The notes: generated by a model from the letters alone, not told the origin. Positions 17,623 to 20,983 are shown, counted from the first letter of the stretch. The stretch is 64,000 nucleotides of DNA from Escherichia coli (GCF_003334385.1 NZ_QOWN01000020.1), one strand, 5' to 3'. Program-made: numbers and translations.

Positions 17623-18888
17623 TTAACCTGAACGACGACGATTACGCGGAGCGCCAGTACGACGCGGACCATTGCCTGTACGTGGGCGCGTGAGGCGCAG
17701 CGGTTTTGGCAGATCGGTCATCAATGCGTCCGGATTGTATTTGCTTACCGGAATTGAGTGACCAATATAGGTCTCAATAGCAGGCAAATTCAATGCATAC
17801 TCTTCACACGCCAGGCTGATAGAGTGACCGCTTGCGCCTGCGCGACCTGTACGACCAATACGGTGAACGTAATCTTCACAGTCATCGGGTAAATCGTAGT
17901 TAAAGACGTGCGTCACTGCCGGAATATGCAAACCACGCGCGGCAACGTCGGTGGCAACCAGAATATCCAGATCGCCACGGGTAAATTCATCAAGAATACG
18001 CAGACGTTTTTTCTGCGCGACATCGCCTGTCAATAAACCGACACGATGACCATCTGCTGCCAGGTGGCCCCAGATCTCTTCACAACGGTGTTTGGTGTTG
18101 GCGAAAATAATCGCTCTGTCTGGCCACTCTTCTTCGATCAGCGTTTGCAGCAAACGCATTTTTTCTTCGTTAGAAGGGTAGAAAAGCTCTTCTTTAATAC
18201 GGTGGCCCGTTTTCTGTTCCGGTTCCACTTCAATATATTCGGCATTGTTCATCTGCTCGAACGCCAGTTCACGTACCCGGTACGAAAGCGTGGCGGAGAA
18301 CAGCATGTTGAGGCGCTGGTTTGCAGGCGGCATACGGCGGAACAGCCAGCGGATATCTTTAATAAAGCCCAGATCGTACATGCGATCGGCTTCGTCCAGT
18401 ACCACCACCTGAATGGCACCGAGGTTAATGTGGTTCTGCTTGGCGTAGTCAATTAAACGCCCCGTGGTGCCAATCAGAATGTCAACGCCGCTTTCCAGCA
18501 CTTTCAGCTGTTTGTCGTAGCCATCACCACCGTAAGCCAGACCCAGCTTCAGGCCAGTAGCTTCCGCCAGCGGTTCTGCGTCGGCATGGATCTGCACGGC
18601 AAGTTCACGCGTCGGTGCCATAATTAAGGCACGCGGCTGATTCACCTTGCGATCGGCAATCGCAGGATGAGAGAGAAGATAATGAAACGTTGACGTAAGA
18701 AACGCCATCGTTTTCCCGGTACCGGTTTGCGCCTGCCCGGCTACGTCACGACCCGCCAGCGTCAGCGGAAGGGCCAGTGCCTGAATGGGCGTACAGTTAT
18801 GAAACCCTTTTTTTTCAAGGGCTTCTACAACCTTCGGATGCAGGGCGAAGTCGGAAAACTTCTGTTCTGTTAAATGTGTTTTGCTCAT
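17623..18888 (-). CDS. rhlB: ATP-dependent RNA helicase RhlB (DEAD-box)
   Basis: 421-aa ORF with DEAD-box motifs (GTGKT, DEAD, SAT). Confidence 0.95.
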
Positions 18889-19018
18889 AGTGTGGTAGAA
18901 TATCAGCTTACTATTGCTTTACGAAAGCGTATCCGGTGAAATAAAGTCAACCTTTAGTTGGTTAATGTTACACCAACAACGAAACCAACACGCCAGGCTT
19001 ATTCCTGTGGAGTTATAT

Positions 19019-19348
19019 ATGAGCGATAAAATTATTCACCTGACTGACGACAGTTTTGACACGGATGTACTCAAAGCGGACGGGGCGATCCTCGTCGATT
19101 TCTGGGCAGAGTGGTGCGGTCCGTGCAAAATGATCGCCCCGATTCTGGATGAAATCGCTGACGAATATCAGGGCAAACTGACCGTTGCAAAACTGAACAT
19201 CGATCAAAACCCTGGCACTGCGCCGAAATATGGCATCCGTGGTATCCCGACTCTGCTGCTGTTCAAAAACGGTGAAGTGGCGGCAACCAAAGTGGGTGCA
19301 CTGTCTAAAGGTCAGTTGAAAGAGTTCCTCGACGCTAACCTGGCGTAA
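19019..19348 (+). CDS. trxA: Thioredoxin 1
   Basis: ORF track begins 18914; trimmed to ATG 19019 ([13 protein letters not shown]), WCGPC active site. Confidence 0.95.
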
Positions 19349-19488
19349 GGGAATTTCATGTTCGGGTGCCCCGTCGCTAAAAACTGGACGCCCGGCGTGA
19401 GTCATGCTAACTTAGTGTTGACTTCGTATTAAACATACCTTATTAAGTTTGAATCTTGTAATTTCCAACGCTTCCCGTTTTATCTTAA

Positions 19489-19590
19489 ATGCGAAGTGAA
19501 CAGATTTCTGGCTCGTCACTCAATCCGTCTTGTCGTTTCAGTTCTGCGTACTCTCCTGTGACCAGGCAGCGAAAAGACATGAGTCGATGA
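19489..19590 (+). CDS. rhoL: rho leader peptide
   Basis: 33-codon ORF MRSEQISGSSLNPSCRFSSAYSPVTRQRKDMSR in the rho 5' leader. Confidence 0.6.
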   Translation: MRSEQISGSSLNPSCRFSSAYSPVTRQRKDMSR

Positions 19591-19674
19591 CCGTAAACAG
19601 GCATGGATGATCCTGCCATACCATTCACAACATTAAGTTCGAGATTTACCCCAAGTTTAAGAACTCACACCACT

Positions 19675-20934
19675 ATGAATCTTACCGAATTAAAGAATAC
19701 GCCGGTTTCTGAGCTGATCACTCTCGGCGAAAATATGGGGCTGGAAAACCTGGCTCGTATGCGTAAGCAGGACATTATTTTTGCCATCCTGAAGCAGCAC
19801 GCAAAGAGTGGCGAAGATATCTTTGGTGATGGCGTACTGGAGATATTGCAGGATGGATTTGGTTTCCTCCGTTCCGCAGACAGCTCCTACCTCGCCGGTC
19901 CTGATGACATCTACGTTTCCCCTAGCCAAATCCGCCGTTTCAACCTCCGCACTGGTGATACCATCTCTGGTAAGATTCGCCCGCCGAAAGAAGGTGAACG
20001 CTATTTTGCGCTGCTGAAAGTTAACGAAGTTAACTTCGACAAACCTGAAAACGCCCGCAACAAAATCCTCTTTGAGAACTTAACCCCGCTGCACGCAAAC
20101 TCTCGTCTGCGTATGGAACGTGGTAACGGTTCTACTGAAGATTTAACTGCTCGCGTACTGGATCTGGCATCACCTATCGGTCGTGGTCAGCGTGGTCTGA
20201 TTGTGGCACCGCCGAAAGCCGGTAAAACTATGCTGCTGCAGAACATTGCTCAGAGCATTGCTTACAACCACCCGGATTGTGTGCTGATGGTTCTGCTGAT
20301 CGACGAACGTCCGGAAGAAGTAACCGAGATGCAGCGTCTGGTAAAAGGTGAAGTTGTTGCTTCTACCTTTGACGAACCCGCATCTCGCCACGTTCAGGTT
20401 GCGGAAATGGTGATCGAGAAGGCCAAACGCCTGGTTGAGCACAAGAAAGACGTTATCATTCTGCTCGACTCCATCACTCGTCTGGCGCGCGCTTACAACA
20501 CTGTTGTTCCGGCGTCAGGTAAAGTGTTGACCGGTGGTGTGGACGCCAATGCCCTTCATCGTCCGAAACGCTTCTTCGGTGCGGCGCGTAACGTGGAAGA
20601 GGGCGGCAGCCTGACCATTATCGCGACGGCGCTTATCGATACCGGTTCTAAAATGGACGAAGTTATTTACGAAGAGTTTAAAGGTACAGGCAACATGGAA
20701 CTGCACCTCTCTCGTAAGATCGCTGAAAAACGCGTCTTCCCGGCTATCGACTACAACCGTTCCGGTACCCGTAAAGAAGAACTGCTCACTACTCAGGAAG
20801 AACTGCAGAAAATGTGGATCCTGCGCAAAATCATTCACCCGATGGGCGAAATCGATGCAATGGAATTCCTCATTAATAAACTGGCCATGACCAAGACCAA
20901 TGACGATTTCTTCGAAATGATGAAACGCTCATAA
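19675..20934 (+). CDS. rho: Transcription termination factor Rho
   Basis: ORF track begins 19603; trimmed to ATG 19675 ([15 protein letters not shown]), 419 aa. Confidence 0.95.
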
Positions 20935-20953
20935 ATTTGTCTTATGCCAAAAA

Positions 20954-20983
20954 CGCCACGTGTTTACGTGGCGTTTTGCTTTT
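20954..20983 (+). terminator. rho intrinsic terminator
   Basis: CGCCACGT-GTTT-ACGTGGCG hairpin followed by a T-rich tract. Confidence 0.7.

Follow-up and report, generated by a model that had tools for sequence, protein, structure and literature searches.

We identified positions 19350-19680 of a 64,000-nt stretch of Escherichia coli DNA (hereafter the window; GCF_003334385.1 NZ_QOWN01000020.1, positions counted from its first letter) as the already known and annotated leader of rho, lying in an ordinary E. coli locus. The interval is very probably the 5' leader of the E. coli rho mRNA acting as a classic autoregulatory attenuator, with selection on the RNA and not on the encoded peptide or on an obligatory upstream ORF (uORF). 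A first-pass annotation made from the sequence had placed a rho leader between trxA and rho, and the leader and all the sequence features that it named are present there. The gene order in the window is rhlB (minus strand), trxA, rhoL, rho and wecA, with the following coding features around the leader:

19019..19348, + strand: trxA CDS, the upstream neighbour (RefSeq annotation transfer)
19489..19590, + strand: rhoL, an ORF of 33 codons labelled 'rho operon leader peptide' (exact match to RefSeq rhoL, and NCBIfam NF007433)
19675..20934, + strand: rho CDS (ORF list and RefSeq annotation)

The trxA CDS ends with a TAA stop codon at 19346-19348. The 421-nt segment 19300-19720 matches many complete E. 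coli genomes with 100% identity. A search of 5,426 complete E. coli genomes found it in every one, in 5,380 of them with an identity of at least 99%, and RefSeq names the genes there trxA, rho and 'rhoL: rho operon leader peptide RhoL'. Coordinates of MG1655 (NC_000913.3) were related to the window with a verified offset of 3,946,742; the two sequences have zero mismatches from 18858 to 20228 of the window, and 11 synonymous-looking differences further into rho. The rhoL-rho leader and attenuator of E. coli K-12 (b3782-b3783) is the same locus in another strain, identical in leader sequence and sharing gene order, ORF, and mapped 5' and 3' ends with the window locus.

An ORF scan recovered the 33-codon, Ser- and Arg-rich ORF at 19489..19590 that the first-pass annotation had described, and confirmed its placing of the ORF end about 85 nt before the rho ATG, with 84 nt measured between the rhoL stop codon and the ATG at 19675. 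Compared with annotated rhoL, the ORF coincides exactly: RefSeq rhoL (2690-2791 of locus L001) equals 19489-19590 base for base, MG1655 b3782 (3966231-3966332) maps onto the same positions, and the product aligns over residues 1-33 of 33 to NCBIfam NF007433 (rho operon leader peptide RhoL) with 95.2 bits, above the curated cutoff of 85, the ORF lying between trxA and rho on their strand. The product, MRSEQISGSSLNPSCRFSSAYSPVTRQRKDMSR, contains 9 Ser and 5 Arg, a richness that follows from the translated RNA being YC- and CG-rich. When the 256-nt leader was shuffled with its dinucleotides preserved, 21% of the sequences contained an ATG-initiated ORF of at least 33 codons, and across 111 Enterobacterales rho leaders such ORFs were present in 19% of real versus 22% of shuffled sequences; the length of rhoL is thus no greater than chance allows. 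Because neither the ORF nor the promoter hexamers discussed below exceed chance expectation, identification of the locus rests on synteny and on identity with annotated E. coli.

Using the same coordinate offset, we placed published transcript ends on the leader, with the following features:

19419, + strand: transcription start site of the rhoL-rho mRNA (SMRT-Cappable-seq, as listed in a single data set, PMC6131387)
19385..19413, + strand: putative promoter fitting the mapped start, with -35 TGGACG at 19385-19390, a 14-nt gap, and extended -10 TG-c-TAACTT at 19405-19413
19418..19446, + strand: the hexamers TTGACT (19418-19423) and TATTAA (19441-19446) of the first-pass annotation, separated by a 17-nt spacer and located within the transcribed leader

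Supplementary file 3 of PMC6131387 lists a primary transcript at 3966161-3967722 covering b3782 and b3783 (NC_000913.3), which therefore sets the rhoL-rho start site at 19419 and the 3' end at 20980 of the window. A start at 19419 gives a 256-nt leader with the rhoL AUG at +71. Matsumoto reportedly mapped a start about 255 bp upstream of rho, in agreement with the SMRT-Cappable-seq start. The elements TGGACG and TGcTAACTT have the correct spacing from 19419, and an alignment of about 30 Enterobacteriaceae contains two almost invariant blocks, CTGGACGCCCGG and TGCTAAGTTA; the distance to the start and the conservation of the blocks suggest that 19385-19413 would be active as a promoter. The same table also contains read-through transcripts of trxA-rhoL-rho (3965649-3967722 and 3965690-3967722, covering b3781, b3782 and b3783) from two trxA starts, as well as a trxA-only RNA ending at window 19399 (PMC6131387).

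The first-pass annotation had proposed TTGACT and TATTAA as the rho promoter. Both hexamers exist as it described them, but the mapped start at 19419 falls inside its -35 element, and the 5' ends listed in the published table include none near 19453 and so none 5-9 nt past its -10 element. That the pair is a real second promoter, giving a leader of roughly 222 nt, appears quite improbable, even though 9 of its 12 positions agree with the consensus, its 17-nt spacer is ideal and TTGACT is conserved in relatives, since that conservation is equally explained by TTGACT occupying leader positions +1 to +5. TATTAA is without the invariant final T and lies in an indel-rich, non-conserved stretch, being present only in Escherichia and Citrobacter among the approximately 30 Enterobacteriaceae aligned, so that the two hexamers are not conserved together. 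The consensus promoter scan did not include the pair among the sites that it reported, and found 1 promoter-like site in the region versus a mean of 3.1 in shuffled sequences.

We then retrieved from the published supplements the RNA 3' ends and Rho-sensitive regions of the locus and combined them with a terminator scan, resulting in three termination features:

19725..19762, + strand: Rho-dependent (bicyclomycin-sensitive) zone of premature termination, 50-88 nt into rho (PMC7815308 supplement)
19580, + strand: Term-seq RNA 3' end in codon 31 of rhoL, 95 nt before the rho ATG (3966322, from two other growth conditions, listed without a Rho score; PMC7815308)
20950..20980, + strand: intrinsic terminator of rho (placed at 20950-20977 by the terminator scan, with a 12-bp stem followed by a T run) and mapped mRNA 3' end, with which the prediction agrees

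Adams et al. (PMC7815308) reported a Term-seq 3' end at 3966467 (window 19725; LB, OD 0.4), 50 nt into rho, with a Rho score of 7.07, a Rho-dependent flag of 'Yes', and an intrinsic-terminator score that, at 1.2, does not reach the threshold of 3. Their bicyclomycin-sensitive region peaks at 3966504 (window 19762; score 7.82, p = 1.3e-215), with a downstream coverage of 297 without the drug versus 2,386 with bicyclomycin (PMC7815308). Baniulyte and Wade found that, with the rhoL region as reference, RNA polymerase occupancy in rho rose 12-fold in a rho R66S mutant, and that tetracycline had no significant effect on occupancy in rho. The terminator scan found no terminator-like site on the + strand from 18850 to 20949, so that no intrinsic terminator stands behind the premature 3' ends; the mapped rho mRNA 3' ends themselves are at 3967721 and 3967722 (window 20979 and 20980; PMC6131387, PMC7815308). 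Present in multicopy, a fragment that carries rhoL has an effect like that of Rho inhibition, as would fit an RNA titrating Rho, and an IS2 insertion in rhoL brings Rho down to about 40%; both observations are consistent with an RNA-level role for the rhoL segment. Relief of termination by inhibition or mutation of Rho is taken here from the literature (bicyclomycin, PMC7815308; rho R66S), and from these two lines of data it follows that autoregulation of rho by attenuation is well supported, as is the trxA-rho spacer as its site. The first-pass annotation had anticipated this autoregulation; it had placed it in 19350-19680, and the measured ends lie mostly inside rho, past that interval.

To compare the leader among relatives, we fetched 120 Enterobacterales loci with a degenerate DNA pattern for the N-terminus of Rho, a procedure that avoids a bias towards rhoL. 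Wherever the flank was long enough, trxA preceded rho, with spacers of 308-585 nt. A tblastn search with RhoL against 110 fetched loci returned no match outside Enterobacteriaceae, and within this family the ORF was usually not intact in the RhoL-similar sequence. The codon aligned to the rhoL ATG was ATG in 4 of 48 Enterobacteriaceae (E. coli, E. albertii, Enterobacter sp. R1 and Dryocola boscaweniae); in the last two it lies in the hypervariable loop, which aligns poorly, and is not followed by an ORF through the conserved core. The column reads ACG in Salmonella and GCG in Citrobacter, and in both the frame is free of stop codons. Frame-breaking net indels were found in 23 of the 48 leaders, and in 31 of the 48 species none of the frames offers an ATG-initiated ORF across the conserved core; among the others, frame 0 is used in 8 species, frame 1 in 10 and frame 2 in 1. 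Among loci retrieved through an identical TrxA protein, the Escherichia-type ones keep the 33-codon ATG ORF, and in the Salmonella-type ones (418-nt spacer) the ORFs proposed by gene callers start at ATC or ATT only. E. albertii and a divergent E. coli strain carry 32-residue versions of RhoL, one residue shorter and with Ser-to-Leu and Pro-to-Leu changes. Variability by codon position was 0.151 at the third position versus 0.095 and 0.120 at the other two, a difference that is not significant (permutation p = 0.09). From this alignment the ATG-initiated rhoL ORF appears confined to Escherichia, and neither its start codon nor its frame is conserved among relatives.

A search for Shine-Dalgarno motifs (GGAG, GAGG, AGGA or AAGG, at most 16 nt upstream) found none before the rhoL ATG or in the leaders of 48 species, and RNA folding placed the rhoL AUG base-paired inside a hairpin of -10 kcal/mol, so that rhoL appears to lack the functional translation initiation region of a uORF-controlled attenuator. 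The role that the first-pass annotation had implied for the 33-codon ORF is therefore left unsupported: its ATG occurs in Escherichia only, most Enterobacteriaceae have a broken or startless frame, and the AUG is paired and without a Shine-Dalgarno sequence.

Using folding, composition and the alignments, we delimited four elements in the leader RNA:

19469..19498, + strand: stem-loop with a hypervariable loop and with arms that other genera retain (folding, and alignment by eye)
19505..19597, + strand: pyrimidine-rich core conserved within Enterobacteriaceae, a candidate auxiliary Rho-binding or sRNA-binding segment
19600..19617, + strand: small hairpin GGCA-U-GGA/UCC-UGCC, with an outer stem kept across Enterobacterales and a variable loop (alignment and fold)
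19611..19694, + strand: C-rich, G-poor tract spanning the rho start codon, the best candidate for the main rut site (composition and conservation)

The stem-loop (-10 kcal/mol, z = -3.5, 87% of the ensemble) pairs the rhoL AUG (19489-19491) in its inner stem, and by eye its arms change in ways that preserve pairing, to CTGCTTC/GAAGCAG in Superficieibacter and CCTCT/AGAGG in Kluyvera. The core has a column variability of 0.04-0.2 and holds 13-14 YC dinucleotides per 78 nt with a C/G ratio of 1.2-1.6; RNAalifold closes it with a long-range helix between 19510-19517 and 19586-19592 that includes compensatory pairs at 19512:19590 and 19516:19587, and the z-score of its fold is only -1.7. In the small hairpin, 74% of cells are paired and covariation is weak, a score as high as the observed one arising in 7 of 500 shuffles. 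The fold of the whole leader is not unusually stable (z = -1.4). An in-frame ATG at 19603 was considered as the start of a longer Rho isoform and rejected.

Conservation is widest at the end of the leader, where the last 80 nt or so before rho are conserved across all families of Enterobacterales, with the near-invariant sequence CAUACCAUUCAC ... GUUCGAGAUUUACCCCGAGUUUAAGAACC..CACCAYUAUG following the 19600-17 hairpin. The tract 19611-19694 is near-invariant in 56-60 Enterobacterales and reaches a C/G ratio of 2.9 in 78-nt windows, versus a 99th percentile of 2.04 for the whole 64-kb window. RNAalifold predicted zero consensus pairs for this tract and the last part of the leader, and no Shine-Dalgarno sequence precedes the rho start codon. 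From the end of the tract it is 30-70 nt downstream to the Rho-dependent 3' ends that were measured, and a rut-like RNA (C-rich, G-poor and weakly structured) accordingly lies upstream of them, as is usual for a Rho-dependent attenuator. Judged from the alignments, the conserved unit appears to be the leader RNA, most strongly so at the C-rich tract downstream of rhoL, and the composition of 19611-19694 makes it the leading candidate for the principal rut, where Rho would load, although this role could instead fall to the pyrimidine-rich core under rhoL.

We propose the following mechanism, in which loading of Rho on its own leader and early termination in rho are the known part and the choice of the main platform is our addition. 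Transcription starts at 19419, probably from the extended -10 promoter overlapping the end of trxA, with some read-through from trxA, and the resulting 256-nt leader RNA would serve as a loading platform for Rho, mainly through 19611-19694. The pyrimidine-rich core under rhoL might contribute to this loading, and could be an auxiliary rut, a structural element or an sRNA-binding element. Once loaded, Rho stops transcription early in the rho ORF, after 50-90 nt (19725-19762); since Rho is terminating its own transcript, more active Rho would mean less full-length rho mRNA, a negative feedback. Ribosomes initiating on rho would cover the 19611-19694 tract and oppose Rho, so that with this tract as the main platform the two would be rivals for one stretch of RNA. 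Selection has probably acted on the leader RNA, and neither on the RhoL peptide nor on an obligatory uORF, and translation of rhoL would be dispensable.

The ORF itself can be read in other ways. rhoL would be a genuine regulatory uORF if its translation remodelled the leader, set Rho loading and coupled rho to the translational status of the cell (in Mg2+ starvation, for example), with ribosomes on rhoL covering the pyrimidine-rich core and the 19510-17/19586-92 helix. Initiation-site ribosome profiling is reported to detect rhoL in E. coli, at least 3-fold induced in low Mg2+ (PMC11429745), and from this reported signal rhoL is probably translated at least sometimes in E. coli, so that a lineage-specific role for its translation there is possible. 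The ORF also overlaps the conserved pyrimidine-rich segment and the 3' end at 19580, and it is kept in E. coli, E. albertii and the divergent Escherichia strain; deletions and insertions in rhoL have phenotypes, though such changes also destroy the RNA. We consider this role unlikely: in addition to its paired AUG without a Shine-Dalgarno sequence and its length within chance, the ORF is absent, frame-shifted or startless in most Enterobacteriaceae including Salmonella, it ends about 20 nt before the strongest C-over-G tract and 135-170 nt before the termination zone, and tetracycline left RNA polymerase occupancy in rho without significant change.

Far less likely still is that RhoL works in trans as a functional 33-residue peptide, with Rho or stress-response pathways among its conceivable targets. 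RefSeq and NCBIfam annotate RhoL as a peptide, and deletion of rhoL has been described in the literature to lower an RpoS-dependent reporter transiently, a phenotype that altered expression of rho would explain. The peptide is low-complexity (Ser/Arg rich) and unconserved beyond Escherichia, while the DNA underlying it is conserved there, and its versions in E. albertii and the divergent strain are one residue shorter and have Leu in place of Ser and of Pro. Selection on the leader RNA can also be read in a more specific form, to which we give not quite an even chance: rhoL would be an accidental frame specific to Escherichia and, in evolutionary terms, no leader-peptide gene, and the device shared by Enterobacterales would be a C-rich platform of about 80 nt across the rho start codon, free of a Shine-Dalgarno sequence and of consensus structure, on which Rho and the initiating ribosome would compete directly. 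If so, the cell would set its Rho level by weighing Rho activity against translation capacity, and the conserved platform of about 80 nt would be an element without an Rfam family.

Short uORFs in long leaders with premature Rho-dependent termination downstream are known from tnaC-tnaA and mgtL-mgtA. The toiL-topAI leader is built in the same way, with a short uORF in a long 5' leader and a downstream gene under premature Rho-dependent termination, as in rhoL-rho. The uORFs of all three (tnaC, mgtL and toiL) have a ribosome-binding site, conserved ligand- or stress-sensing codons, and a defined link from stalling to exposure of a rut, whereas rhoL has no Shine-Dalgarno sequence, is not conserved outside one genus, and does not overlap the strongest rut-like tract. 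We know of no stalling signal in rhoL. Because E. coli cannot live without Rho and a large part of its transcription is terminated by it, it matters how the level of Rho is set. The locus is textbook material and nothing about it is categorically new; the only mildly new angle is that the 'leader peptide' label is probably an accident of a conserved regulatory RNA. The annotation 'rho operon leader peptide' passes on a function for which the comparative data give no support. Promoter and termination points now have exact positions relative to the conserved RNA blocks, and the location of the best-conserved part of the leader, downstream of rhoL and across the rho start codon, suggests where the real rut and the competition between ribosome and Rho may lie.

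The leader is also described as a target of the sRNA SraL. In the reviews concerned, rho of Salmonella is under both leader attenuation and SraL control, with SraL pairing upstream of the ribosome-binding site, where it is thought to occlude a rut site, and one review has the SraL binding site overlapping a putative rut. The Salmonella leader is the same one, its orthologous sequence being about 90% similar over the last 256 nt, and control by SraL would belong to the same class as that of rpoS by DsrA, ArcZ and RprA, in which sRNAs modulate Rho attenuation in 5' leaders. We searched the E. coli leader for a site of SraL (RyjA) by windowed duplex prediction and found no duplex better than those of shuffled leaders (best energy -22.2 kcal/mol, shuffle mean -22.4); the predicted pairing of 19524-19547 with SraL 76-106 is only a lead.

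We also compared the leader with the cis-regulatory RNA families of Rfam, which it resembles in being conserved at the level of family and order independently of a coding frame. A search of 19350-19680 against Rfam 15 matched zero families, even at E <= 1, the rho leader thus differing from those families in having no entry of its own, and the only significant match nearby was the TrxA thermometer, upstream of trxA.

We considered the possibility that Rho is initiated upstream of its annotated start; a 2025 review (PMC12258240) poses as a question whether a longer Rho starting at an upstream ATG is an isoform or a misannotation. This extension and three further features of the region are as follows (window coordinates):

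18949-19048, + strand: match to TrxA_thermometer (Rfam RF02773), 78.8 bits, E = 3.6e-13
19363-19403, + strand: GC-rich hairpin 3' of trxA (CGGGTGCCC ... GGACGCCCG), identified by eye
19603-19674, + strand: upstream ATG in frame with rho, adding 24 residues to Rho if used
19857-19964, + strand: second strong tract of C over G, within rho (approximately codons 61-97), identified by composition

Any in-frame ATG upstream of rho was found in only 34 of the 111 Enterobacterales, and in 44 of the 111 a stop lay four codons ahead of the rho start, despite the conservation of the nucleotides. These comparisons favour misannotation over an isoform as the origin of the 24-residue-longer Rho. Another ATG of the leader, at codon 31 of rhoL (GACATGAG, window 19579-19590, + strand), was kept in most Enterobacteriaceae, and the tiny frame that it opens was 2-5 codons long (e.g. 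MS*, MSRWP* or MSDGR*); its conservation is probably a by-product of that of a helix arm.

The conserved GGCA...UGCC hairpin, whose counterpart in the window lies at 19600-19617, has in Serratia silvae (L032) an insertion of about 43 nt placed precisely within its loop, with both flanks intact. Longer loops of this hairpin were also found in Providencia and Hartigia.

Within rho, the tract at 19857-19964 contained 19-22 YC dinucleotides in every 78 nt, at a C/G ratio of 2.1-2.5. As a candidate intragenic rut, it could provide further attenuation when rho is poorly translated.

At the 3' end of trxA, the 3' arm of the hairpin detected by eye overlapped the rho promoter at its -35 box, and mapped trxA RNA 3' ends fell at window 19399-19403 (MG1655 3966141, 3966142 and 3966145). 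The trxA terminator is leaky, since full trxA-rhoL-rho transcripts are listed too. In six Salmonella-type loci (L111, L126, L129, L130, L132 and L133), the trxA-rho spacer measured 418 nt, versus 326 nt; the added sequence lay directly 3' of the trxA stop codon, and in that stretch it did not align with the blocks that form the terminator and promoter in E. coli. Upstream of the gene, the RF02773 match in the trxA 5' UTR exceeded the gathering score of the family (58) and reached into the first trxA codons.

Searching 5,426 complete E. coli genomes with window 19300-19720 yielded 5,430 matching places, one of them plasmid-borne, and the trxA-rhoL-rho junction was present in two copies in at least one genome.
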